From Escherichia phage KIT01, in sequence record AP019521.1: a stretch of DNA of 64,000 nt. One strand, given 5' to 3'. The notes beneath the pieces were generated by a model. It had not been told where the DNA came from. It made no database searches and was given only the letters and a program-made list of their open reading frames with translations. Made by a program: the position numbers and the translations under genes. Positions 7,390 to 62,469 of this stretch are shown here, one piece after another; position 1 is the stretch's first letter, and each line of letters opens with the position of its first letter.

Positions 7390-8064
7390 TTATCGATTTT
7401 TTACACTTAACGGGTCAGGATTCTCAGGGACATCTTCCAGACCTAAGGCATATCGTTGGGCATATTTAAGCATCAAGATATCCTTAGCACAGTCATGGAT
7501 GGAGTCATGGGCAACAAAGCCGTTCAATGTTCCATTAGGCAGAGGACACATGCTCAATCCGCGAGTCAATGAATAGGCTTCAATAGCCGTACGGATATCA
7601 CGTTGGTTCCAGAATTTAACCGGTTCTAATTTGCTGGTATCGATTTCATTCTCAGGAACACCTTCAGAACGATAAGCATCGCGAATAAGGTCGACTAAGA
7701 TAGGAAAGTCGAATGACATTCCACGACACCACATCTGTGATTTCCATTGGTCCACTTCGTTTTTACGGCAGTATTCCAGGAAATTACCGAGACCGATAGA
7801 AGTGCTCACATCCATTTCGGATGGAGCCAGGTTTTTACGTGCTTCAGGCCCTTGCTCTTTCCACCACTGCAATGTGCTTTTAGAAAACAGTCGTCTATCA
7901 CGTTGAGAAGCGAGGTCAAATTTAATACGAAGGCCTCGTTGAGTAAGCTCTTCAAACGATTCTACTACCTCTGGATTAGGGTCATAAGCAATTACTGCAA
8001 GGTCGATAACCGCCGCATTTTGGGTTGTGGCAAAGGTTTCGAAGTCAATAATTATATCTTTCAT
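7390..8064 (-). CDS. dexA: exonuclease A (DEDDh 3'-5' exonuclease)
   Basis: 224 aa; IIDFETF...AVIDLAVIA..DPNPEVVE...CRGMSFDFPILVDLIRD...FVAHDSIHDCAKDILM matches T4 DexA as recalled. Confidence 0.85.
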   Translation of the reverse strand: MKDIIIDFETFATTQNAAVIDLAVIAYDPNPEVVESFEELTQRGLRIKFDLASQRDRRLFSKSTLQWWKEQGPEARKNLAPSEMDVSTSIGLGNFLEYCRKNEVDQWKSQMWCRGMSFDFPILVDLIRDAYRSEGVPENEIDTSKLEPVKFWNQRDIRTAIEAYSLTRGLSMCPLPNGTLNGFVAHDSIHDCAKDILMLKYAQRYALGLEDVPENPDPLSVKNR

Positions 8065-8300
8065 TTAACATACCTCATAAGGTCTCGGATTTGGCCAACG
8101 GTGTAGTCTTCAATATAAACCGAAGAGATATTGTCGTCCATCAGTTTTTGTACTGCAATAAAATCGTATTCAATCTCTTTAAGTGAGTGCAAGACCTTAT
8201 GAGCCTTGCCACGAATATTTGTATCGTCTGGGTTGACCTTAATAATATATTCTGTTTCAAATTTCAGCTTATAAAATTGGTCTTTAGTTACTTTAATCAT
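8061..8300 (-). CDS. hypothetical protein
   Basis: start set at MIKVTK after GAGGAAAA SD, 8 nt past dda stop. Confidence 0.4.
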   Translation of the reverse strand: MIKVTKDQFYKLKFETEYIIKVNPDDTNIRGKAHKVLHSLKEIEYDFIAVQKLMDDNISSVYIEDYTVGQIRDLMRYVK

Positions 8301-8307
8301 ATTTTCC

Positions 8308-9639
8308 TCAAACGTAATAGGCATCATTACGAGCACGAGTAATACTAACATAAGCCAGCTGTGAAGCTAAATTCGCATCAGCCATGTGCATACATGGAGT
8401 ATAGATGAAACTGTTCTGGACTGTGAGGCCCTGCGATTTATGAACAGTGCTCACAGGAAGAGCTCGAACCTTAGTAAACATTCTCTTAGCTTTCCAGAAA
8501 TCAGCCCACTTAGGTTTCTTACCTGTTCCACGCATAGCTTTGTATTCAGTAGCAACCTTAGCCAAGAAATAATGGAACTTCTCTACTGAAGCCTCATCGA
8601 TGACCTTTAAATGCTCTACATAGTACTCGTCGTCTTCATCGACGGATTCTACTTGCAGGTCCCAGTAATTAATCATTTGTCGAGTGCCTACATCCTTGGC
8701 AGACAAGAACAATGAGGTGTGGTTCACATCCAGAATACGAACCATTTGGCCATTGTTAAAAATGGTTTCAGAGAATTTCTTACCGTCATATTCAAGCTCC
8801 TTAATAAAAGGCTCTTGCATCACTAGGATTTCGCCCTTGATATAAGGTGCATCGGTTTCATAAAGCTTTTTACGAATAATGCTATTCAGCTTTTCAACTG
8901 ATTTATTTGTATAAGCAAACATCCTATTCTCGAACAGGGCATCTGCGTCTTTTACAATGGAAAAATAATTCATCATAAAATCTTTTAAAGCCGTTTGAGA
9001 TTTAAAACCGTGGACACCATGGTCTTCGAATATACAATCTCTAAACCATCCACCATTACGGATTTCGGTGGCAACCTCAATGATAGGAGCATTACTACGC
9101 ATTACTTCAGTCAAATGCAATTGCTTAATTTTTGGGTGTGTAAAGAACGGAGACAACTGCGGACTACCATCACTTCCAGGTTCCACTGGCTGTAGCTGAG
9201 CTCTGTCGCCAATCCCTAATACAGTACACCATGGCGGCACGGAAGATTCAATAATCTTAAACAGCTTACCGTCAATCATCGAGCCTTCATCAACAACTAG
9301 CACATTACATTTACTCAAATCAGGAGCTTCGCGTTGTTCAAAGATGTCCTGGTCTTCGTATGTAGTAGGGTTAATCTTTAGAATTCTGTGGATTGTTGAT
9401 GCTTCTTGACCTGCGAGTTTCGACAACACCTTTTTGGCCGCATGAGTAGGTGCAGTCAAAATAACTCCGAGTTCACCATTCTTGACTAAATGGTCAAGGA
9501 TAAATTTGGTAAGGGTTGTTTTACCTGTACCAGCAGGACCGTTCAATGTAATCCATTCGCCCTTACGCCGTTTAATAGCTTCAATGATTTCTTTAAAGGC
9601 CGTCCTCTGGCCGATGTTCAAGTCTTCAAATGTAATCAT
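8308..9639 (-). CDS. dda: Dda DNA helicase (SF1)
   Basis: 443 aa; Walker A GPAGTGKTT, N-terminus MITFEDLNIGQ...close to T4 Dda. Confidence 0.9.
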   Translation of the reverse strand: MITFEDLNIGQRTAFKEIIEAIKRRKGEWITLNGPAGTGKTTLTKFILDHLVKNGELGVILTAPTHAAKKVLSKLAGQEASTIHRILKINPTTYEDQDIFEQREAPDLSKCNVLVVDEGSMIDGKLFKIIESSVPPWCTVLGIGDRAQLQPVEPGSDGSPQLSPFFTHPKIKQLHLTEVMRSNAPIIEVATEIRNGGWFRDCIFEDHGVHGFKSQTALKDFMMNYFSIVKDADALFENRMFAYTNKSVEKLNSIIRKKLYETDAPYIKGEILVMQEPFIKELEYDGKKFSETIFNNGQMVRILDVNHTSLFLSAKDVGTRQMINYWDLQVESVDEDDEYYVEHLKVIDEASVEKFHYFLAKVATEYKAMRGTGKKPKWADFWKAKRMFTKVRALPVSTVHKSQGLTVQNSFIYTPCMHMADANLASQLAYVSITRARNDAYYV

Positions 9640-18271: not shown

Positions 18272-18297
18272 TCAAAAAAGGAGCCGAAGCTCCTTAA
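18272..18297 (-). terminator. intrinsic terminator after gene 41
   Basis: minus GGAGC-UUCG-GCUCC followed by UUUUUU; overlaps stop codon. Confidence 0.6.
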
Positions 18298-19733
18298 AAT
18301 TTGATAGATGCTGCTAAATCGTCCAAATCACTTCTATTAACACGCGTCTGTCGATTGACCTCGGCTTGGCGATTCATCTCACCTGTAGCCTCACGAACGG
18401 TGTTCACTGGGCCAGGGTTGGAATCGTCTTCAACTTCATACCAACGTTGATTTCCTTTCTTAACGCCAATCTTAAATTTGTTGTAGTAGCTCTTATCGCC
18501 ATAACGAGATTTAAGCTGCTTAACCATCTGCATACCCATCTGAGCAAACTCTTCTGTCTCGACCACACCTAACATGAAGTCTGCAGTATGCGCAATACCA
18601 AAGGATTCAGCAATATCAGCCATATCGATTTCTGCCGCAACGTTCGCGCCACGAGTAGTCTGGGCTGCCGTCCACAACAATAATTTCTTCTCTACTGCCA
18701 GTCCACGTAGTTCTTCGGCAACCATCTTAATCAATCCGTAACTGTTTTCAGAGAAAACTTTAGTACGAGACGATGCACAGATGGCCAAGTAGTCGACGAT
18801 AACAACCTGTGGGACAAAGTTTTGTTTGAGCTTGTATTCGTTTAATAATGCTCGAAACGTATCGGCATTAGCACCACCGGTAGGATACTGTTTAATCTTT
18901 AAACGACCTAAGGTAGCAGTTGAACGCCATTTATCCATCTTAGCTTTATATTCAGGCCACGAGACATGACCATCATCGATATCATCCAGTGACACGTCCA
19001 GAAGGTTGGCATCGATACGCTTAGCACATACTTCCTCTGCCATCTCCATGGAAATATAAAGAACATCGTATCCGGATTGAAGGTAATCAGCAGCCAATGA
19101 ACACAGTCCAAGAGACTTACCTACGTTTGTTCCTGCTAACAATACGTTTTCAGTACCAAACTCGGCACCGCCCTTGGTAATCTTATTCAGAATATTAAGA
19201 CGGAATGGAACCTTACGTGCTTTATCGGAATAACTTTTGAATCGTTCTTCATAGTCATCCATCCAGTCATGACCTAATTCAGAATCGAAACAAATCGATA
19301 ATGCATCACGCATGATATCTGGAATAGCACCAATACCTGGAAGTTTTCTATTTTGTTGCTCAACCGGAAGGTCGGCATTAGTTTGGATTTCAATGATTTT
19401 TGAAGTTGCATTATACATCGCTGCTTTCTGAACGTATTTCTCCGTCTCTTTAACCAACCATTCTTGGTCTTCAGGTCCGGCATTCAGTGAACTTAAAAGC
19501 TCTTTAGCGCCTTGGTGTTCAACTTCTGAAAGCGTACTGTTATCTAATGCAATGCTTAATGCGTTCTTAGAAGGCACTGCATTATATTCATTGACGTGTT
19601 TTTTAATTTCTTTGAAAAGGGTCTTTGCAGGACCCTGGTCAAAATATGAATCATTCATATAAGGCCAGACCTTAGTGAAATAATCACTATTGCCTAGCAG
19701 TTGAGCCAAAATAGTTTCTACCACTTCCACCAC
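18294..19733 (-). CDS. 41: replicative DNA helicase (DnaB-like)
   Basis: 479 aa; Walker A GTNVGKSLG, near-collinear with T4 gp41. Confidence 0.9.
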   Translation of the reverse strand: MVEVVETILAQLLGNSDYFTKVWPYMNDSYFDQGPAKTLFKEIKKHVNEYNAVPSKNALSIALDNSTLSEVEHQGAKELLSSLNAGPEDQEWLVKETEKYVQKAAMYNATSKIIEIQTNADLPVEQQNRKLPGIGAIPDIMRDALSICFDSELGHDWMDDYEERFKSYSDKARKVPFRLNILNKITKGGAEFGTENVLLAGTNVGKSLGLCSLAADYLQSGYDVLYISMEMAEEVCAKRIDANLLDVSLDDIDDGHVSWPEYKAKMDKWRSTATLGRLKIKQYPTGGANADTFRALLNEYKLKQNFVPQVVIVDYLAICASSRTKVFSENSYGLIKMVAEELRGLAVEKKLLLWTAAQTTRGANVAAEIDMADIAESFGIAHTADFMLGVVETEEFAQMGMQMVKQLKSRYGDKSYYNKFKIGVKKGNQRWYEVEDDSNPGPVNTVREATGEMNRQAEVNRQTRVNRSDLDDLAASIKF

Positions 19734-20047
19734 CTCTTAGATTTAATTTTATCCAGTTCTTCTTGTATTTGCATTGTAACACATTTTTCTACATGAAGCG
19801 CTAGCTCTTCTTTTCGGTCTTCGGAAGGTGTTCCGAAATCAACCGACACTTTTCCATCTTTCTCAATAACAATATTCATCACATAAACGATGTGAGCAGT
19901 GCCATCGGGTAAAGTAAGCATAATTTCCTGCTTAACAGAACCCATTGACTTACGGATTATATCTAATGATTTCTCATAATAACGAGGGTCACTAGGACCC
20001 TCTTCGGTATCTTTAACAAAATTATCTAAATCAGATAAATCAGTCAT
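19718..20047 (-). CDS. hypothetical protein at gene 40 position
   Basis: 109 aa between 41 and uvsX; assignment by synteny only. Confidence 0.4.
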   Translation of the reverse strand: MTDLSDLDNFVKDTEEGPSDPRYYEKSLDIIRKSMGSVKQEIMLTLPDGTAHIVYVMNIVIEKDGKVSVDFGTPSEDRKEELALHVEKCVTMQIQEELDKIKSKRWWKW

Positions 20048-21212
20048 CTAAATCCATCTCTTCTAAATCGTTTTCGATATCAGCGGCGCTTTGGGTATTT
20101 CCACCTAATTTAACAGCAACGTTCTTAGAGACACGAGAGTTAATAAGGTCGTTCACTGCATCGTCAACTTCTTTAATAGAATTAATTGCACCGAGCTTAT
20201 ACTTATTCTCGATTGCTTCACGGAACGGAGCATGTTTAAACAGCGGTCCCCAGAACTCAACACAATCGGTAGCTTTAGCACGCCATGCTTTTTCTTCTTG
20301 AACCATTTCACCTGTGGTTTCGTCAAGGAATGCACGATTATACCAGCCAGCTTTAGGTTTCACGACAAAGCCAATATCAGTAGCCATTTCAAGCAATCCG
20401 CTGAATGGGTCGATACCACCTTCGAAGTTAACAGTGATAGGGAACGTTGATTTCTCTTTAACCGTACGAGATTTCTCAGCCTTCAGTGTGAAGTCATAAC
20501 CAGTGAGCTCAGTACCATCTTTAACCTGACGTTTAGAGATAAAGAACACGGTAGAAGCAGAGTACAGAATACCAGTACCACCACCCATAATCTCTTTAGG
20601 ATACATTCCACCAATTTCCATAGCCGTGTGGTTAATTGCTACACAAGGGATATCTTTGATGGTCAGATAAGGTGTTACGATACGGAACAGAGATTTCAGT
20701 GACTTAGCACGAGTCATATCACCTACAACTTTCTCGTTCAAAGCATCTTCGGTTTCTTTCTTAGAAGCAGTGTTACCGATGGAGTCGATAAAGATAATAA
20801 CCTTTTCGCCACGAGTAATTTCTTCTAACTGGTTGGTCATATCAACTTTAAGCTGTTCGACTGACTGGATTGGGGTATGAACCACACGTTCCAAATCAAC
20901 ACCCATCGAACGGAAATAAGATTCTGAAGCACCAAACTCAGAGTCATAGAACAAACAAATTGCGTCTGGATATTTCTTCATATATGCCGCAACCATGGTA
21001 AGTCCAAACAACGTTTTAAAGTGTTTAGATGGAGCAGCAAAGATTGTCAAACCTGATTGTAAGCCTGCATTCAACGCACCACCTAATGCAATATTCAGCA
21101 TAGGGATACGAGTAGGAACTTCGTCACGACCATTAAACAATTTAGATTTGGTCAGGTCGGCAGTCATTTTAGAAGTAGAAGCTTTAATCAAACGGGATTT
21201 TAAATCAGACAT
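20040..21212 (-). CDS. uvsX: UvsX recombinase (RecA-like)
   Basis: 390 aa; MSDLKSRLIKASTSK...FYDSEFG... very close to T4 UvsX. Confidence 0.95.
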   Translation of the reverse strand: MSDLKSRLIKASTSKMTADLTKSKLFNGRDEVPTRIPMLNIALGGALNAGLQSGLTIFAAPSKHFKTLFGLTMVAAYMKKYPDAICLFYDSEFGASESYFRSMGVDLERVVHTPIQSVEQLKVDMTNQLEEITRGEKVIIFIDSIGNTASKKETEDALNEKVVGDMTRAKSLKSLFRIVTPYLTIKDIPCVAINHTAMEIGGMYPKEIMGGGTGILYSASTVFFISKRQVKDGTELTGYDFTLKAEKSRTVKEKSTFPITVNFEGGIDPFSGLLEMATDIGFVVKPKAGWYNRAFLDETTGEMVQEEKAWRAKATDCVEFWGPLFKHAPFREAIENKYKLGAINSIKEVDDAVNDLINSRVSKNVAVKLGGNTQSAADIENDLEEMDLDD

Positions 21213-21289: not shown

Positions 21290-22183
21290 TTAAAGGACCA
21301 CGTCCTCATAACTTGGCATTTCGTGCTCAGAATGGATATGGGCACCGAAATAAATGAATTCAGCTAGACCAGGATGGAATACTAAACCAGGATTCTCATG
21401 ATAAATGATATGAGGTCTTGATTTCAGAATCTGATAATATTCAACCTTACTCGGTTTGAATTTAATAATCTCTACATCAGGACGATAGTCTTCACGCTTA
21501 AATGAATCATTCGGATCGGTGATATAAAGGCGAGAACCTCCAGCCGCAGCTTGGTCTACAACTCTTTCGAATTGATAGCATTTATCAGAGATACGGAATG
21601 GATGGAAAATACCATCAATTTTAATAGGCGCTAGACCTTCAGAGTAACGCTCAATTACTGCCGGATTAATTACCTTTTGGTCTACAAAAATCTTATCAGA
21701 GGACGCACCTCGTGACACCAGGACGTCTTTCTGGCATTGATTCAAGACTGTAGTATAAATCGAACGTTCAACTGAAGACACGTCGATATCAATGAACTCA
21801 TCGATGTAATAACGAGGAACTTCAGGGTCCATTGTAATGTTAAAGTTGAATTGTACAGTATGAGCACCATCATAACCTGTGATATCGGTTACCAATCCTG
21901 AGCAGTCATAGTATTCGATTAACGAATCAACAACGAACTCATTTTCAGACCAAAAATGTTTACGAGTTTCATAAGCATTTTCTTTATACCAAAGCGGTAC
22001 AAAATTCAGTTCAGGAAACAATTCAATACATTCTTTGATATCGCTCGAATTTCTAGGATAAGCCAGATAATCACCTGGGCAAGCACGGTTTAAATGGAGT
22101 TGAAAATTACCGTCCTTAAGGACGGCATATTCACCTGTTTCGTAACTACGCATACTGAAAATAGGAACGATAAACAAACTCAT
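21290..22183 (-). CDS. unrecognised protein at the beta-glucosyltransferase locus (candidate hmC-modifying transferase)
   Basis: 297 aa; lies between uvsX and gene 42 where T4 has beta-gt; no similarity to T4 beta-gt detected by eye. Confidence 0.55.
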   Translation of the reverse strand: MSLFIVPIFSMRSYETGEYAVLKDGNFQLHLNRACPGDYLAYPRNSSDIKECIELFPELNFVPLWYKENAYETRKHFWSENEFVVDSLIEYYDCSGLVTDITGYDGAHTVQFNFNITMDPEVPRYYIDEFIDIDVSSVERSIYTTVLNQCQKDVLVSRGASSDKIFVDQKVINPAVIERYSEGLAPIKIDGIFHPFRISDKCYQFERVVDQAAAGGSRLYITDPNDSFKREDYRPDVEIIKFKPSKVEYYQILKSRPHIIYHENPGLVFHPGLAEFIYFGAHIHSEHEMPSYEDVVL

Positions 22184-22878
22184 TTCAGGAATCCTCGAAC
22201 GTAGTCAAAATCACGTTCAAATACATGTGCACTAACCATAGTATGGGAATACGTACCCAGACCAACACCACACTGTTCAGCAATAAAGGCCATCAGTTTA
22301 CCCTGCAGATAGAAATCCAGCTGCATAACGATAGCACAGTTCTGTGAACGCATATGGGTATGTGCATAAAGACGTCCATCACGAATATAATATGTTACCG
22401 AATCGGTGCACGGATATTCTAAGGATTCGTCAGAATCAAGGAGGGCTTGGTCTTGTTCTTGGAGAATTTGGAACACAACTCGTCTCGAGTTAGGCTTTTC
22501 TTTAAGCTCTTTAAGTAAGGCTGGGAGTTGGGCCACAATTCGAGGTCCATAGAAAGTGTTGAAGTTTGCAGGCAATACGTCACTTTTCGGCTTATCAATG
22601 AACTTAGCAACATTAGGGTATTCCTTAAATGCTTCGGCGGCATCAGTACCGCCGGAAATCATAAACTTCCAGAAAGATTCGGCATAATCATAGTTGATAC
22701 GATTAATACGAGGGTCGGTGAATTTATAGGTGCTTGCATCCAGTACTTCTACCGAAGCAGAACCAATTTCATAACAACGGCCGATACGAGAATCAACTGC
22801 AAACTGTGGAGCTTCCAGGATTTCTTCGTTCATTTGCTTAAACGCGTTTTCAAAACTAACAGCGGTAATGTGTTTCAT
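22180..22878 (-). CDS. 42: dCMP hydroxymethylase (thymidylate synthase fold)
   Basis: 232 aa; PCTDSVTYYIRDGRL...MRSQN...QLDFY aligns with T4 gp42 CTNTVQYLIRD...MRSND...RNDY; synteny. Confidence 0.8.
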   Translation of the reverse strand: MKHITAVSFENAFKQMNEEILEAPQFAVDSRIGRCYEIGSASVEVLDASTYKFTDPRINRINYDYAESFWKFMISGGTDAAEAFKEYPNVAKFIDKPKSDVLPANFNTFYGPRIVAQLPALLKELKEKPNSRRVVFQILQEQDQALLDSDESLEYPCTDSVTYYIRDGRLYAHTHMRSQNCAIVMQLDFYLQGKLMAFIAEQCGVGLGTYSHTMVSAHVFERDFDYVRGFLK

Positions 22879-23411
22879 TTATTCACCTTATTTTCAATAT
22901 ATTCATTCAGACGTTTTAATTCTACCATATCGACGTTAAGCAAGTTATTATGCCCGTCATGGTTTAAAACTTTAAAAACATTTTTAAAACAGTCTTCATA
23001 TTTTTGGATAGTTAAGTTGAATTCATCTTTAGTCAGTTTAATGAGGTCATCTTCAAAGTCTTTATCCAACGGATTACGGGTTAAAATAATCTCAATGATA
23101 TTGAATTCTTTTTTGAAATCAATCCAATCTGCTAGTTCTACATAAGGGTCCATTTCACCACGAAGGAATCCCGAGTAAACAATATTACTAGGATACCCAC
23201 GGTCTAAGATGTAGACAAAATTAGGGTCTAAAAACTTATACAACGTCTCGACTAAAGCCTTGTCATTATCAGTCCCTAATGAAATGCATTTGCCATTAAT
23301 CTTTTTAGGGAAATCAATAAGACGATATTTCTTATCAGATAAAAGTGATTCAATTAAAGTAGACTTCCCGGAATTATCCGGGCCGTCGATAACAATGATT
23401 TTTGGTTTCAC
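22875..23411 (-). CDS. P-loop nucleoside/nucleotide kinase-like protein
   Basis: 178 aa; Walker A IIVIDGPDNSGKSTL at N-terminus; small kinase fold typical of dNK/TMK-like enzymes. Confidence 0.6.
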   Translation of the reverse strand: MKPKIIVIDGPDNSGKSTLIESLLSDKKYRLIDFPKKINGKCISLGTDNDKALVETLYKFLDPNFVYILDRGYPSNIVYSGFLRGEMDPYVELADWIDFKKEFNIIEIILTRNPLDKDFEDDLIKLTKDEFNLTIQKYEDCFKNVFKVLNHDGHNNLLNVDMVELKRLNEYIENKVNK

Positions 23412-23782
23412 GGATGATATGCCTTATAGGTTTCAAGAGTTCCTTCACGAACCATTTCTTTAAAGTGGTCAGGACGGATTGCTCGGTCATCGATGATAAA
23501 AGTATAACTCGGCTTATGTGTAAGCAGATTATGATATTTCAATCCGATCTTTTCAAGGTTCTTAACCAATGCAGGAACTACTTCAACCAAGATTCGACCA
23601 GGGCCGCATGAAGTCATGCCACGGGCAGTGAACAAGGTAATCTCATGACCTTCGTCATAAAGCTTATTAATCATGGACACCATTTCGGTGTCCGGTTTAA
23701 AGTTTTCGTAATCACGGTCATCTTGCCAGTGAGTAATGGTATTATCGATATCAAAACACAGATGCATTAAATTTTCTTCCAT
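23408..23782 (-). CDS. HAD-superfamily phosphatase-like protein
   Basis: 124 aa; motif I FDIDNTI (DxDxT), later TAR and IIDD motifs; alternative start at 23767. Confidence 0.55.
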   Translation of the reverse strand: MEENLMHLCFDIDNTITHWQDDRDYENFKPDTEMVSMINKLYDEGHEITLFTARGMTSCGPGRILVEVVPALVKNLEKIGLKYHNLLTHKPSYTFIIDDRAIRPDHFKEMVREGTLETYKAYHP

Positions 23783-25440
23783 TGTTTGTGGAGTTCAGTA
23801 GAACCTGTAGGTTTATATTTTACACCAGTTTCCTGGTCAAGCAAAACCCACTTATCAGGGCAACGAGTGATAATTTGAGCCGTAATAGGGTCACGAACTT
23901 CATCGACAAATTCACCTGTAATAAGCTTACGCTTACGAGGATGCCGCTTCAGCAGCACACTCAGTTGGTATAGACCGTTGTAATAAGCACCCAGAGCTTT
24001 CAGAGGATTATTCTTAAAGTAACCTGCCAGTGCCATCCAAATAACGGCAATCCAGAGCTTGTGCTTAAATGTACACATCGGAATATCATCTAAAGGCATA
24101 ACCTTTTCAATATCAACGAATACACGAGTTCCGTTACGAGTTAATCCACCCCATAGAGGGTCAGAGTTAAATTTGTCATAGCCATCGATAGAATAAAGCA
24201 CCTTAGCTTCGTCATAAATCGCAGGGCCTTTAGAACTATTACCAAAATAACCACGTGGGTCGATGATTTTAATATCACCTTCGTCCGACAGCATAATATT
24301 ACTGTAGTGCGGGTCACCATGAATAAGTTGGTATGGTTCTTTATGTTCAGACAGAATTTCTAGTGCATGACGGAGAAGTTTTTCAGGGTCGCCTACCTTG
24401 AAGTCGTTAACATGGGTAATGCCCTGTGGAGCAAAGCCTTCAATCAATCCAGCAATAGAAGCATTACGAATAAGGACCTTGTCCAATACTTCTTTCTTAA
24501 CATCAGAATACCATTGCTCATCGGATGGGTTATCGATAGTTCCGCCGAATGAACGCAATGCACTAATGACCTTATAAACCATGAGGACTTTGGTTTCTTT
24601 AGACATAAACCGGTAGGCATCTGCCATGGTACGACCAAAGATACGTTCCATTTTAATGAATTCGCCTGGAGCAAAGTCTACAATGCTAGGAACGAATTCA
24701 GAATCAATAGAATTATACCAATTGATTTCTTTAGATTGGATTTCTTTACCTAATTCGTTGGTAGGTACTTTAATAGCCAGATTCTCAGTGAATTCTAATT
24801 TATTAAATTCACGGTTAATTTCAGAATCTTCATGGGCCTTAGCCAGTTTCAATTTGTCACCGACATCAACCACAAAGTCCAGCTTACGTTCAGTCAAATG
24901 GACCATCGAATCCAGGTTGTCTGCAAGGTCTTCGCCATAATTAGAACGGTCGAAACCTGTCCAATTAGCCACCTGATACAAACCAACCACACCACCGCCA
25001 GTACCAATTTCACGCAAGTACGGTTCTTCAAATGTAAAACGACAGTCGGTCCCATAGGTATAACAGTAGTCGTTATCCCACTCAACTTTATGACCTTCAG
25101 GAATAATATCACACCAGTTAAACAAGACATTATGCCCGATGATATCTTCGGCAATGCAATCGATAGCATGAGCTGAACCATTGGCCACATCTACGTTACG
25201 GATAGTGAATTTAGGCTTATCACTGGTAATCATGTTAATGGATTTAATATAGCCTTTAACGAGGTCGTTAAATTTGCTGTGAATAACCAGAATAATTTCA
25301 TCTGATTGGTTACTATACAAATCATACAAATGTTTTAATACGGTATGTTGTTTGTAGTTAACCAATACCTTCGGGATTTCGTTAGTAATTGGATACAACC
25401 GTGAGCCAAGACCCGCGCCTAAAATAACAACCTTTTTCAT
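23767..25440 (-). CDS. bifunctional sugar-1-phosphate nucleotidyltransferase / APH-choline-kinase-like sugar kinase
   Basis: start set at MKKVV after GAGGAA SD; N-terminus VVILGAGLGSRLYPIT..IPKVLV = RmlA/GlmU signature; C-terminal HGDPHYSNIML...IIDPRGYFG = Brenner kinase motif. Confidence 0.7.
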   Translation of the reverse strand: MKKVVILGAGLGSRLYPITNEIPKVLVNYKQHTVLKHLYDLYSNQSDEIILVIHSKFNDLVKGYIKSINMITSDKPKFTIRNVDVANGSAHAIDCIAEDIIGHNVLFNWCDIIPEGHKVEWDNDYCYTYGTDCRFTFEEPYLREIGTGGGVVGLYQVANWTGFDRSNYGEDLADNLDSMVHLTERKLDFVVDVGDKLKLAKAHEDSEINREFNKLEFTENLAIKVPTNELGKEIQSKEINWYNSIDSEFVPSIVDFAPGEFIKMERIFGRTMADAYRFMSKETKVLMVYKVISALRSFGGTIDNPSDEQWYSDVKKEVLDKVLIRNASIAGLIEGFAPQGITHVNDFKVGDPEKLLRHALEILSEHKEPYQLIHGDPHYSNIMLSDEGDIKIIDPRGYFGNSSKGPAIYDEAKVLYSIDGYDKFNSDPLWGGLTRNGTRVFVDIEKVMPLDDIPMCTFKHKLWIAVIWMALAGYFKNNPLKALGAYYNGLYQLSVLLKRHPRKRKLITGEFVDEVRDPITAQIITRCPDKWVLLDQETGVKYKPTGSTELHKQWKKI

Positions 25441-25500
25441 TATCTGTTCCTCAAGTGAATGTAGGTACATTATACACTATTTTTAATAAATTGGTATTGC

Positions 25501-58021: not shown

Positions 58022-58321
58022 TTAGAAAGAACCAGAACCTTTAATTGTGTTCTGACGACCTTTATTTTCCAATTCGGAGTGGTCGATTTCATATGCTTGT
58101 GCTACGCCAAAGGCCTTTTTAACTTTAGCTAAAGAACCTTTAGATGTAACAATATTAAAAGTATTACCTTTGGTAAAATCAACCAAATCCACTTGTACAC
58201 CCTGCTTGCCGAGGCTTGCTACAATAGCATCAACATATTGTTGGTCTAAAGTACCTTGGACGCCAATTTGAAATGCTTTAGGAGCTTTGGCTTCTGTAAT
58301 AAATTCTTGATAAGTTTTCAT
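58022..58321 (-). CDS. internal protein (IP-like) with capsid targeting sequence
   Basis: N-terminus MKTYQEFITEA = T4 IP capsid-targeting leader MKTYQEFIAE. Confidence 0.7.
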   Translation of the reverse strand: MKTYQEFITEAKAPKAFQIGVQGTLDQQYVDAIVASLGKQGVQVDLVDFTKGNTFNIVTSKGSLAKVKKAFGVAQAYEIDHSELENKGRQNTIKGSGSF

Positions 58322-58329
58322 ATTAAGCC

Positions 58330-58689
58330 TTAAAGATGGTCTAGTGCTGGGTTATGAGGTTTTTCTGCTTTAGTAGTGTTTTTATGCCAATCTGATTTAG
58401 AAACACGGATGGCATCAGCGCCATAAGAACTCTTAAGGAGACCTTTTTTATTGTACACGCTTATTGAAGTAAGAGAATCACCATTCCATGTAGCATGAAT
58501 GAAGTTAGATTTAGATTTAAGTTCTTTAGCCAAGCTCTGGTTAGTGGCCATGGAAGCAAAGTCTTTACCTGTAACTTTAAAAACTTCAGATGGGTTCAGC
58601 CCTTCTTTAGCCTTAGCCAATTGTTCAGGAGACATAGCTTCGTTAATGCGCTGAGTAGATTCAGTAATAAATTGTTGGTAAGTTTTCAT
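58330..58689 (-). CDS. internal protein (IP-like) with capsid targeting sequence
   Basis: N-terminus MKTYQQFITES. Confidence 0.7.
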   Translation of the reverse strand: MKTYQQFITESTQRINEAMSPEQLAKAKEGLNPSEVFKVTGKDFASMATNQSLAKELKSKSNFIHATWNGDSLTSISVYNKKGLLKSSYGADAIRVSKSDWHKNTTKAEKPHNPALDHL

Positions 58690-59208: not shown

Positions 59209-59511
59209 TTATTTAGCTTTAATTGCTTTAGCTGCTTCGGTAGCCGCTTGCTGAAGGTCATCCATAGACATACCGAACTTAGAAGCAAAGTTATCAATTT
59301 TCTTTTCGACAGAATTCAAAGGCTTGGCCTGTTTACCTTCATTAGCGCCCGGGAGAGCGAGAATACGCTCTTTGTCAATATAAAGGCTTACAAGTTTCTT
59401 ACGGTCTTTATCCGACAAATCATGAAATGAATGGGCCTTTTTATTTACAGCGGCTTCTAATTTACCTGCGGTTACGCGGGCTTCAGTGATAAATTCTTGA
59501 TAGGTTTTCAT
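59209..59511 (-). CDS. internal protein (IP-like) with capsid targeting sequence
   Basis: N-terminus MKTYQEFITEA. Confidence 0.7.
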   Translation of the reverse strand: MKTYQEFITEARVTAGKLEAAVNKKAHSFHDLSDKDRKKLVSLYIDKERILALPGANEGKQAKPLNSVEKKIDNFASKFGMSMDDLQQAATEAAKAIKAK

Positions 59512-59592: not shown

Positions 59593-59991
59593 TTATTTGT
59601 AGGTTTTCATCCAATTCTTGAACAAAGCCGCGACGTCTTTCTCTTTAACGTTCAGTTTAACGTCCAACATTTTACCACCCGCTGCTCTCGTTTGGCGAAT
59701 CTTAGCAGTACCGGTTTCACCATTCCACTCAACATAATACTGTCCAGTGTTCATTGCAATACCATCACCATAGTCTTCATTTTTAGAAGTGGTGAATGCC
59801 AGCTTCATAGTCTTAGATACACGAGCCTGCATGCCTGTCTGAAGGGCATTACGAACTCGAATAACCTGAGGAGTGGCCTGGGTCAGGTTCTCATTCAGTT
59901 CTTCAGTGAACTCTTCGGATTCGAACATCGCCAAAAGTTCTTTAGATGCAGGAATTACATTCTCTGCGATAAATTCATTATAAGTTTTCAT
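59593..59991 (-). CDS. internal protein (IP-like) with capsid targeting sequence
   Basis: N-terminus [11 protein letters not shown]. Confidence 0.7.
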
Positions 59992-60472: not shown

Positions 60473-60505
60473 AATACCTCCTGAGTATAGGAGGTATTTA
60501 TATCA
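60470..60505 (-). promoter_or_regulatory. late promoter TATAAATA plus SD-sequestering hairpin for lysozyme gene e
   Basis: minus strand reads TATAAATACCTCCTATACTCAGGAGGTATTATG: arms ACCTCC / GGAGGT pair across the SD. Confidence 0.6.
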
Positions 60506-60952
60506 AAAGAGCGAATCTAAAACCTTAAACATCGACGGGCCCATGACATATTCCCATTGCGGACGTTTAATCAAAGCAAAAGCATCGAATTCAGGAATCG
60601 TGCGACCATCAGGGAACGTATGGTAAGCTGTACATTTGCAATCCTTGAACTGCTCGTGTTCCACAGGCACCGTATATAAGAACAGGTGTAGATTCTTATT
60701 GCTTGAATATTTGAACTCACCTAGGTCTTTCAGGAACGCAGGATCGTATGCTGTGAATCCAATCTCTTCTTCGGTTTCACGCATTGCCGCTTGAATAGGC
60801 TCTTCGCCTGGTTCGACATGACCTTTAGGAATGTCCCATTTATGACGCATATTCTCTGGATTACGAGAGCCTGTTACACGACCCATAACTAGTTCTTTAT
60901 CAACGGTCATGAACAAAATACCTGCCGATAATTCCTTAGCTTTCTTACTCAT
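60503..60952 (-). CDS. nudE: Nudix hydrolase
   Basis: 149 aa; Nudix box GHVEPGEEPIQAAMRETEEEIG. Confidence 0.8.
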   Translation of the reverse strand: MSKKAKELSAGILFMTVDKELVMGRVTGSRNPENMRHKWDIPKGHVEPGEEPIQAAMRETEEEIGFTAYDPAFLKDLGEFKYSSNKNLHLFLYTVPVEHEQFKDCKCTAYHTFPDGRTIPEFDAFALIKRPQWEYVMGPSMFKVLDSLF

Positions 60953-60972: not shown

Positions 60973-61182
60973 TTAAAAAATATCTCGTATAATAATTTCA
61001 ACACATGTTTCTGTTGACGGACTTTCACTATCAGATATTTGGACCATATAATCAGAAATAGGTCGGAACATATCCAAGTCGCTTTCTAAATCTTCTTTGA
61101 TTTTCTCTTCTGATGTTCCGGTATCATAGGAATACAGGTAAGAATCACATGACTCAGATTTAATATAAATTGCAATACTCAT
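60973..61182 (-). CDS. hypothetical protein
   Basis: 69-aa acidic ORF. Confidence 0.4.
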   Translation of the reverse strand: MSIAIYIKSESCDSYLYSYDTGTSEEKIKEDLESDLDMFRPISDYMVQISDSESPSTETCVEIIIRDIF

Positions 61183-61766
61183 TTACGGCATTCCTTAATA
61201 AAAGAGTTTAATGTATTTTTCTTGGTGATATCATCATATACCTTTTTAACTTTAGAAATACGAAAAGGTACTTCAATAACGGAGGTCCATAAAAATGATG
61301 CGATAAGACCTAAGATAGCAGCAGACATCGCTGAAGCGAATACACAAATAGGCAGGTCATTATCTGTTGTCAGGAAAAACCCTAGGAGTAGGAAAAATAA
61401 TATACCCATCCAAACATAGAATCTAGAACTCACCAATTTGTCGTATTCATCACTCCAGGCACGGAAGCCGTATTTTTTGCTATAACAAATCAATGGGTCT
61501 GGAGTCTGTTCTTTATGTGGTTCTGGTTGCCAGCCGTTTACGATATAGCCCATTTTATATTCCTCAATTAAAAGCCGTTTCATTTCGGCAGTACAACCTG
61601 ACCAATCTATTGTACTGGCTGAAATTCCTTCATCACCGTCATCGATATTTCGCCAGGACTTTTTAATAATCATAGTCTCACCACTTGGGATAATAATTCC
61701 GGCATTTTCCGACCGACGGATGAAGTTTGCATCAATACCCATACACCCAGGTTCATAAAGGGCCAT
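61179..61766 (-). CDS. membrane protein
   Basis: 195 aa; two C-terminal hydrophobic helices. Confidence 0.45.
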   Translation of the reverse strand: MALYEPGCMGIDANFIRRSENAGIIIPSGETMIIKKSWRNIDDGDEGISASTIDWSGCTAEMKRLLIEEYKMGYIVNGWQPEPHKEQTPDPLICYSKKYGFRAWSDEYDKLVSSRFYVWMGILFFLLLGFFLTTDNDLPICVFASAMSAAILGLIASFLWTSVIEVPFRISKVKKVYDDITKKNTLNSFIKECRK

Positions 61767-62455
61767 TACCAGCCCTCCATAGGGAATTCCAGATATACTT
61801 GAGCATTAACACGGATTTCATTAGTAATCTTTTTAACACGGTCTGTATTACGAGACACACGACCAAACCAGCGCCAACCGTTACTTACTGCACGAGAACC
61901 TGTATGCCATGTCTGCCAATCAAACTGGAGCAACGTGCGGTCAGGAGCATCCCACTTGGTTAATTCATTGGACTCAATTTTTTCCAGAACTTCTTTATGC
62001 CACTGGCGATAGATAAGTTCGCCTTCAGGAATCTGACTGAACTGTGCAGTTCCGGTTGCAAAATGAGTAGGACACACATCAGCGTTAACAAGACCAAGAA
62101 TATGTTCAGAATGGTATCGAGGATTATCATAATCAGGTTGCCCTGCGGTAATAAAGTGTTGACCAACCGGAATATCCGGACGTGGTACATCATCATGGTG
62201 GAAGCCTGGAATTGCAGGGTACCAGCCAGGCATTAACATGTGTACACGGGAATCAAATACAATATCAGGGCCACATTGCCAATCTTCAGGCAGGTTTTCA
62301 ATAAAGCTACGAGTAATAGGACCACCGTGTTTATGAGCAAAATAAGCATCGCAATTAAAGAACATAGGCTCATTTTTAATCATACCATTACTGATATCTT
62401 GAGCAAAATTACCTACTATAGAAGCTTTAGAATTAAAAGTTTTCGGACCGTTCAT
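61766..62455 (-). CDS. hypothetical protein (possible metal-dependent enzyme; His-rich motifs)
   Basis: 229 aa; GFHHDDVP ... YHSEH ... FGRVSR could be an HxD..H..RxS 2OG-Fe(II) oxygenase-like arrangement but this is speculative. Confidence 0.4.
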   Translation of the reverse strand: MNGPKTFNSKASIVGNFAQDISNGMIKNEPMFFNCDAYFAHKHGGPITRSFIENLPEDWQCGPDIVFDSRVHMLMPGWYPAIPGFHHDDVPRPDIPVGQHFITAGQPDYDNPRYHSEHILGLVNADVCPTHFATGTAQFSQIPEGELIYRQWHKEVLEKIESNELTKWDAPDRTLLQFDWQTWHTGSRAVSNGWRWFGRVSRNTDRVKKITNEIRVNAQVYLEFPMEGW

Positions 62456-62469
62456 AATATTTTCCTCAC

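Follow-up and report, generated by a model that had tools for sequence, protein, structure and literature searches.

The Fe(II)/2-oxoglutarate (2OG) oxygenases form a well-known superfamily. In these enzymes, the C5 carboxylate of 2OG is bound by a basic residue of strand VIII that follows the distal His by about 10-17 residues and is often part of an RxS motif. In TauD, R266 binds 2OG and R270 binds the substrate sulfonate; in AlkB, the Arg spacing after the distal His is +17/+23. Enzymes of the P4H type bind 2OG by Lys rather than Arg, and in the Fe/2OG halogenases (BesD, SyrB2, WelO5, CurA) the carboxylate ligand is replaced by Gly or Ala. Phage-encoded 2OG oxygenases are also known, as T4-like cyanophages carry 2OG-Fe(II) oxygenase auxiliary genes that were reported as recognized members (PMC3037559). 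We analyzed a 64,000-nucleotide stretch of Escherichia phage KIT01 (AP019521.1), a JS98-like Dhakavirus, hereafter called the window. We find that one of its genes very probably encodes a soluble Fe(II)/2OG-dependent oxygenase of a phage-specific, uncurated family, for which metal binding, 2OG binding, and catalysis are all predicted. The closest known group is the PhyH type (the PF05721 clade of human PhyH, EctD, EasH, HygX, SptF, GriE, and the PhyH-type proline hydroxylase H11). Compared with this group, the family has only 8-14% identity to its matches, falls below the Pfam PhyH threshold, contains a long conserved loop (87-116) after the HxD pair as well as an extra invariant R199-x-S/T201 and an invariant C-terminal Gly-Trp, and is distributed almost exclusively among phages and prophages. 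Like the cyanophage genes (PMC3037559), its members are phage-encoded single-domain proteins of the 2OG-oxygenase fold in T4-like genomes; unlike them, they are matched by no Pfam model and have enterobacteria, Aeromonas, and actinobacteria as hosts. What is new here is that a distinct phage-specific family, so far uncurated, is assigned with documentation, that its predicted catalytic residues are mapped, and that its link to DNA modification gave a negative result.

The 229-aa reading frame is certainly a real gene. Its product is 100% identical to BBI57472.1 of Escherichia phage KIT01, a hypothetical protein, and 99.6% identical to ORF63 of Dhakavirus AnYang. The minus-strand order around it is DUF7277+DUF7275 protein, 96-aa ORF, oxygenase, 195-aa ORF, 69-aa ORF, Nudix, lysozyme e, internal head proteins, and denV (Table 1). 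The TAA stop of the oxygenase overlaps the ATG of the 195-aa ORF by 1 base (TAATG), suggesting that the two are translationally coupled; in T4-like phages, the oxygenase is probably co-translated with this small membrane protein. The 195-aa ORF has no Pfam match and is common only to the T4-like lineage, and its AnYang counterpart is annotated as "putative membrane protein". A scan for promoters and terminators between 60.4 and 64 kb gave nothing that exceeded shuffle expectation. Farther downstream are four small paralogous minus-strand ORFs (58022-58321, 58330-58689, 59209-59511, and 59593-59991) that share an N-terminus reading MKTYQEFITE, MKTYQQFITE, or a third ten-residue variant. Since some AnYang counterparts are annotated as internal head proteins, this shared N-terminus is probably capsid-targeting.

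Table 1. Coordinates of the oxygenase gene, its predicted functional residues, and other features of the window.
Feature	Position	Strand	Evidence or remark
DnaB-type helicase	18294-19733		Beside modification module
UvsX	20040-21212		Beside modification module
RB69-type cytosine-modification module	~21290-25470	-	
Thymidylate-synthase (ThyA) homologue, likely 5hodCMP synthase	22180-22878	-	
NTP-transferase + APH-kinase fusion, likely UDP-arabinose synthesis	23767-25470	-	
NudE-like Nudix hydrolase	60503..60952	-	Pfam NUDIX, E = 7.6e-15; three genes downstream of oxygenase
195-aa ORF with two C-terminal hydrophobic segments (two-TM)	61179..61766	-	Downstream; ATG overlaps oxygenase stop
Putative Fe(II)/2OG oxygenase CDS, 229 aa	61766..62455	-	PHROG 1843; no Pfam or NCBIfam family
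Codons R195...R199-V-S201, strand VIII (model 193-202); predicted 2OG C5-carboxylate site, possibly anionic-substrate site	61853..61873	-	Conservation
Codon H184, predicted distal His, strand VII (model 183-186)	61904..61906	-	Conservation; sub-threshold BesD alignment
Codons Y114-H118 (YHSEH), at start of strand III	62102..62116	-	H118 partly conserved
Codons H86-H87-D88 (HxD pair, predicted facial triad)	62192..62200	-	Conservation; just after beta-strand II
GAGG, Shine-Dalgarno-like	62464..62467	-	8 nt 5' of oxygenase ATG, from sequence
DUF7277 + DUF7275 protein, 340 aa	62761-63783	-	Pfam, E = 1e-27 (DUF7277) and 4e-77 (DUF7275); two genes upstream of oxygenase

At the sequence level, the protein belongs to a large group that carries almost no functional annotation. 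Its PHROG is 1843 ("unknown function"; E = 4e-93). Homologues are present in 471 phage records, and a library of 1.8 billion proteins contains 622 clusters of them at 50% identity. Single-protein searches of Pfam, NCBIfam, and PDB sequences gave no significant match. Profiles of 86 and 119 homologues likewise found nothing significant among PDB sequences; the sole 2OG-family match was BesD (E = 0.72), a sub-threshold alignment in which H184 and R195 face a His and an Arg with the same +11 spacing. A Pfam scan of the 119 members gave scattered sub-threshold matches to AraC_binding, 2OG-FeII_Oxy_5, PhyH, and HalD (E from 0.003 to 0.09). For PhyH (PF05721), the window protein had no match and the best value, in 1 of the 119 members, was E = 0.068, short of the gathering threshold. 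A literature search found no description of the family. Its members are listed as hypothetical protein in NCBI records, apart from a few: in Escherichia phage vB_EcoM_005 and Yersinia phage vB_YenM_P8, the orthologues carry the labels "tail sheath monomer" and "baseplate hub subunit", evident errors that our assignment corrects. The UniRef automatic name of several Aeromonas-phage orthologues, "Phytanoyl-CoA dioxygenase family protein", points the same way as our assignment. The family could instead have a cupin or double-stranded beta-helix fold without 2OG chemistry, either as a 2OG-independent metalloenzyme (isomerase, epimerase, or dioxygenase) or as a non-catalytic ligand binder. The lack of sequence-level membership in any 2OG family, the weak AraC_binding (cupin) matches in a few members, and the moderate similarity scores all speak for this reading, to which we nevertheless give little probability.

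The original prediction had pointed to three motifs in the protein, HHDD, YHSEH, and RVS, and we find all three, at residues 86-89, 114-118, and 199-201. The bare motifs are not above chance. In composition-preserving shuffles of the protein, HxD occurs in 53%, a loose HxD/E...H...RxS pattern in 15.5%, and HxD followed 50 to 150 residues later by His and a further 8 to 18 residues later by Arg in 30%; it is conservation and fold that carry the weight. We therefore used alignments of 86 (A1) and 119 (A2) homologues and a third alignment (A5), reaching down to ~27% identity and covering T4-like phages of enterobacteria and Aeromonas, phages of Mycobacterium and Gordonia, and representatives from metagenomes. 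Within HHDD, the HxD pair stands out in A2, with H86 in 119/119 and D88 in 116/119 members, and the intervening and following positions vary (H87 in 53/119, D89 in 83/119). Of the RVS residues, R199 is present in 118/119 and Ser or Thr at 201 in 112/119. YHSEH had been taken to supply the distal His of an HxD...H...RxS triad. However, H115 is not conserved, and H118 is found in 102/119 (86%) and is otherwise Tyr or Phe, and a His that can be replaced in this way is no metal ligand. Its place as the predicted distal His is taken by H184, which is present in 118/119 members of A2, is invariant in A1 and A5, and lies 82-115 residues after H86. R195 follows in 119/119, at +11 from H184 in 117/119. 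Additional invariant or nearly invariant residues are D68, R92, Q106, T130, F132, Y149, R215, Y221, and the C-terminal G228-W229.

The predicted fold places these residues where a 2OG oxygenase would have them. AlphaFold2 run on A1 gave a confident model (mean pLDDT 90.9, pTM 0.88). Its strands follow one another as in a double-stranded beta-helix, the eight-strand jelly-roll core of the DSBH/cupin clan. Strand I spans 65-74, and the HxD pair comes after a short strand II and is followed by the long conserved loop 87-116, where pLDDT is lower. Strands III (117-123) and IV (130-139) lead to a helix (148-161) and to strands V (166-169) and VI (174-179). Strand VII (183-186) bears H184, and strand VIII (193-202) bears R195, R199, and S201, so that by sequence position and model the HxD pair lies after strand II, the distal His on strand VII, and a basic residue on strand VIII at +11, with R199 and S/T201 in the same strand. 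R195 and the RxS/T residues share one face of strand VIII (i, i+4, i+6). Of the checks proposed with the original prediction, structure prediction gives a double-stranded beta-helix, whose absence would have refuted the idea, and metal-site mapping puts H86, D88, H184, and R195 at canonical positions in sequence and model. The tentative reading of the protein as a 2OG-Fe(II) oxygenase stands as regards its fold, HxD pair, and RVS motif, and has to be amended as regards its distal His.

The nearest structural relatives are PhyH-type small-molecule enzymes. The top Foldseek matches in the PDB were HygX, SptF, ThoJ, ColD, GriE, and EctD (E ~1e-3, TM 0.3-0.43). In BFVD, family members came first; after them came unnamed proteins of phages and giant viruses, together with entries named "phytanoyl-CoA dioxygenase" at E ~1e-3, and cyanophage proteins were among the weak matches. 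This similarity is distant and flat across subfamilies, and the substrate is therefore not identified from the fold. The matches nonetheless bear on two other readings. One is a nucleic-acid-directed oxygenase of AlkB-like function, which would repair or erase base methylation or damage on phage or host RNA or DNA, or hydroxylate tRNA, as part of an RNA-repair toolkit. AlkB-family structures rank beneath the PhyH-type small-molecule enzymes. Additionally, PF13532 (2OG-FeII_Oxy_2) is absent among the 25 most-matched families in the Pfam scan of 119 members, hhalign of A2 against E. coli AlkB gave an insignificant probability of 0.2%, and the +11/+15 spacing of R195 and R199 differs from that of the AlkB family (E. 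coli AlkB, ALKBH2/3/5). We consider this reading unlikely. The other is a protein hydroxylase, of the prolyl (PHD) type or resembling the ribosomal oxygenases, that acts on a host or phage protein such as a translation factor. Neither Pfam 2OG-FeII_Oxy_3 nor P4Hc matched the family, its Arg is invariant where P4H-type enzymes have Lys, and we saw no co-conserved candidate substrate gene, which together make a protein substrate quite improbable.

In the mechanism that we propose for an Fe(II)/2OG oxygenase, the facial triad H86, D88, and H184 would bind Fe(II) inside the double-stranded beta-helix. 2OG would chelate the iron, with its C5 carboxylate bound by R195, and R199 and S201 would either aid 2OG binding or contact an anionic moiety of the primary substrate. 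Reaction with O2 would then decarboxylate 2OG to succinate and CO2 and leave an Fe(IV)=O species, by which the substrate would be hydroxylated. Since Asp88 is retained, we expect hydroxylation, or a hydroxylation-initiated reaction, and not halogenation. A halogenase function was excluded for all but one odd member, the one in which Gly stands in place of the Asp that 116/119 members keep. The family resembles TauD/TfdA in its W-H-x-D motif and in the +11/+15 placement of two arginines relative to the distal His, although hhalign of A2 against E. coli TauD was insignificant (probability 0.3%) and aligned only the WHxD motif, H86/D88 with WHTD. The TauD analogy suggests that R199 binds an anionic substrate; more generally, one of R195 and R199 should bind the 2OG C5 carboxylate, leaving the other for a possible contact with an anionic substrate group. 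Given that the nearest structures are PhyH-type small-molecule hydroxylases and that the family has four invariant arginines, our tentative guess for the substrate is a small anionic metabolite, possibly nucleotide-like or amino-acid-like. The assignment gives an enzyme class and testable predicted catalytic residues to a family that is "hypothetical" in hundreds of phage genomes, including those of therapeutic-candidate coliphages, Aeromonas phages, and mycobacteriophages.

The window also carries an unusual DNA-modification module, as the original prediction had stated, and the oxygenase had been suggested to be another modifying enzyme in this context. The module is of the RB69 type, and Dhakaviruses are predicted to make 5-hydroxycytosine (5hoC) (PMC13326640), so the oxygenase could in principle act in the arabinosyl-5-hydroxycytosine hypermodification pathway, for example as a cytosine hydroxylase or a sugar-modifying enzyme. 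However, in RB69 and, by synteny, in Dhakaviruses, 5-hydroxy-dCMP comes from the ThyA homologue, and all steps of arabinosyl-5hoC synthesis have been assigned without an oxygenase (PMC13326640). The gene lies ~36 kb from the module, and its homologues occur in Mycobacterium and Gordonia siphophages, in Certrevirus, and in prophages of many phyla that have no such module. By location, pathway step, and phyletic pattern, the oxygenase gene is thus not part of the RB69-type cluster. On the literature and gene position, we regard the link to DNA modification as largely refuted and a role in this pathway as highly unlikely, which removes the gene from the candidates for arabinosyl-5hoC DNA modification.

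To describe where the family occurs, we collapsed a context sample of 167 loci into 38 lineages at 60% identity. Because our simple ORF caller made errors in high-GC actinophages (the RtcB of Bachita is one case), we took the final context counts from tblastn with seed proteins; they are minimum estimates. With one genome per species across 185,579 bacterial and archaeal species, we observe only 24 loci in cellular genomes. These are flanked by genes of phage replication or packaging (DnaB, SSB, PolA, YopX, Gp157, TerL), which indicates that they are prophages. The family is essentially phage- or prophage-borne and lies in early or replication regions. No neighbor family was common to >6 lineages, and no window gene fell within the 30 most widely shared neighbor clusters. 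The commonest Pfam family within 3 genes was Nudix, with 4 of 138 neighbors in 23 lineages and 1 more in 8 further lineages. RNA-repair genes were neighbors in 5/38 lineages, RtcB in 3 and RNA ligase in 2, and an RNA-ligase association in only 5/38 lineages also counts against an AlkB-like function. Three large-contig contexts were mixed, the first with RNA ligase, RNase T, and Nudix, the second with type IV pilus genes, and the third with unannotated small ORFs. On an 828-kb JGI contig, one family member (8001-8681) sits between T2SSE, T2SSF, and prepilin peptidase genes (type IV pilus/T2SS). Its surroundings show no obvious phage genes, and this member may be one of the rare copies in a cellular genome.

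NAD-salvage genes also recur among the neighbors. In the forward test, NAMPT and/or NMNAT-Nudix lay within 5 kb of the oxygenase in 6/38 lineages. NAMPT was within ~3 kb in 5 lineages, NMNAT-Nudix was found in 4, and 3 had a Prs/Adps-type gene; NADAR, NAD kinase, and NT5C each occurred a single time. Three lineages have compact NAD-metabolism clusters that include the oxygenase: L085 (2571-6567), L055 (3039-10663), and L064 (5998-10700). NAMPT is adjacent to the oxygenase in L085, where the order is Prs, deoxyribosyltransferase-like, NADAR, NAMPT, oxygenase, and also in L055. In L064, NT5C, NMNAT-Nudix, and NAMPT are downstream of the oxygenase, and in L063 NAMPT and NAD kinase are upstream. 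The phage NAD+ pathways NARP1 and NARP2 together occur in ~5.4% of phages (10.1101/2024.02.11.579819), so that 5-6 of 38 lineages is above naive expectation.

These clusters raise the alternative that the oxygenase is an accessory enzyme of phage NAD+/ADP-ribose metabolism or counter-defense, oxidizing a molecule derived from NAD, nicotinamide, or ADP-ribose beside NAMPT, NMNAT-Nudix, Prs/Adps, NADAR, and Nudix. The forward counts, the NAMPT adjacencies, and the clusters in L064 and L063 favor it, as do the frequency of Nudix neighbors and the NudE-like Nudix gene three genes off in the window. However, the reverse test found a family member in 0 of 80 phage NAMPT loci (+/-8 kb), which led us to reject NAD salvage as an obligate partner. 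A NAD-salvage gene is absent nearby in 32/38 lineages, and two seed searches of the last 14 kb of the window found no NAMPT or Prs-family gene. Genes of the NARP modules co-localize consistently, with Adps and Namat together in 97% of cases (10.1101/2024.02.11.579819), and the oxygenase, at 6/38 forward and 0/80 reverse, does not; nor is it mentioned in the NARP study (10.1101/2024.02.11.579819). The forward signal could stem from the tendency of accessory metabolic genes to gather in the plastic parts of large phage genomes. Altogether, an NAD-related function seems unlikely. A broader version, in which the oxygenase serves in host conflict by oxidizing either a metabolite or immune signal derived from NAD or ADP-ribose or an RNA end or base that is damaged or modified, would explain why the gene recurs, facultatively, next to genes for NAMPT, NMNAT-Nudix, NADAR, Nudix, RtcB, and RNA ligase. 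We judge it to have a low probability; if true, it would be the first oxidative enzyme in phage counter-defense metabolism. Should the weak signal from NAD-salvage or RNA-repair neighbors reflect function, a so far undescribed oxidative step in the metabolic conflict of phage and host might come to light. We conclude that the gene is accessory and belongs to early/nucleotide-metabolism regions; any link to NAD/ADP-ribose or RNA-repair functions would be facultative at most.

The family also varies in gene integrity and domain number. In the Aeromonas phages 65, 44RR2.8t.2, and L9-6, the gene is split or truncated into fragments of 143, 86, and 73 aa, so it is either dispensable there or affected by sequencing frameshifts. 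Two paralogous copies (L144 and L147) lie ~10 kb apart on one actinobacterial (pro)phage contig (IMGVR_UViG_2802429060_000011). Longer members that we checked for fusions had no Pfam partner domains, and those without a duplication have N-terminal extensions. The metagenomic members P0257 (418 aa) and P0316 (444 aa) are tandem duplications of the oxygenase domain, in which the first copy is intact and the second is degenerate, having lost HxD and kept the C-terminal K-G-W. This arrangement hints at a pseudo-heterodimer, and at single-domain members that act as dimers.
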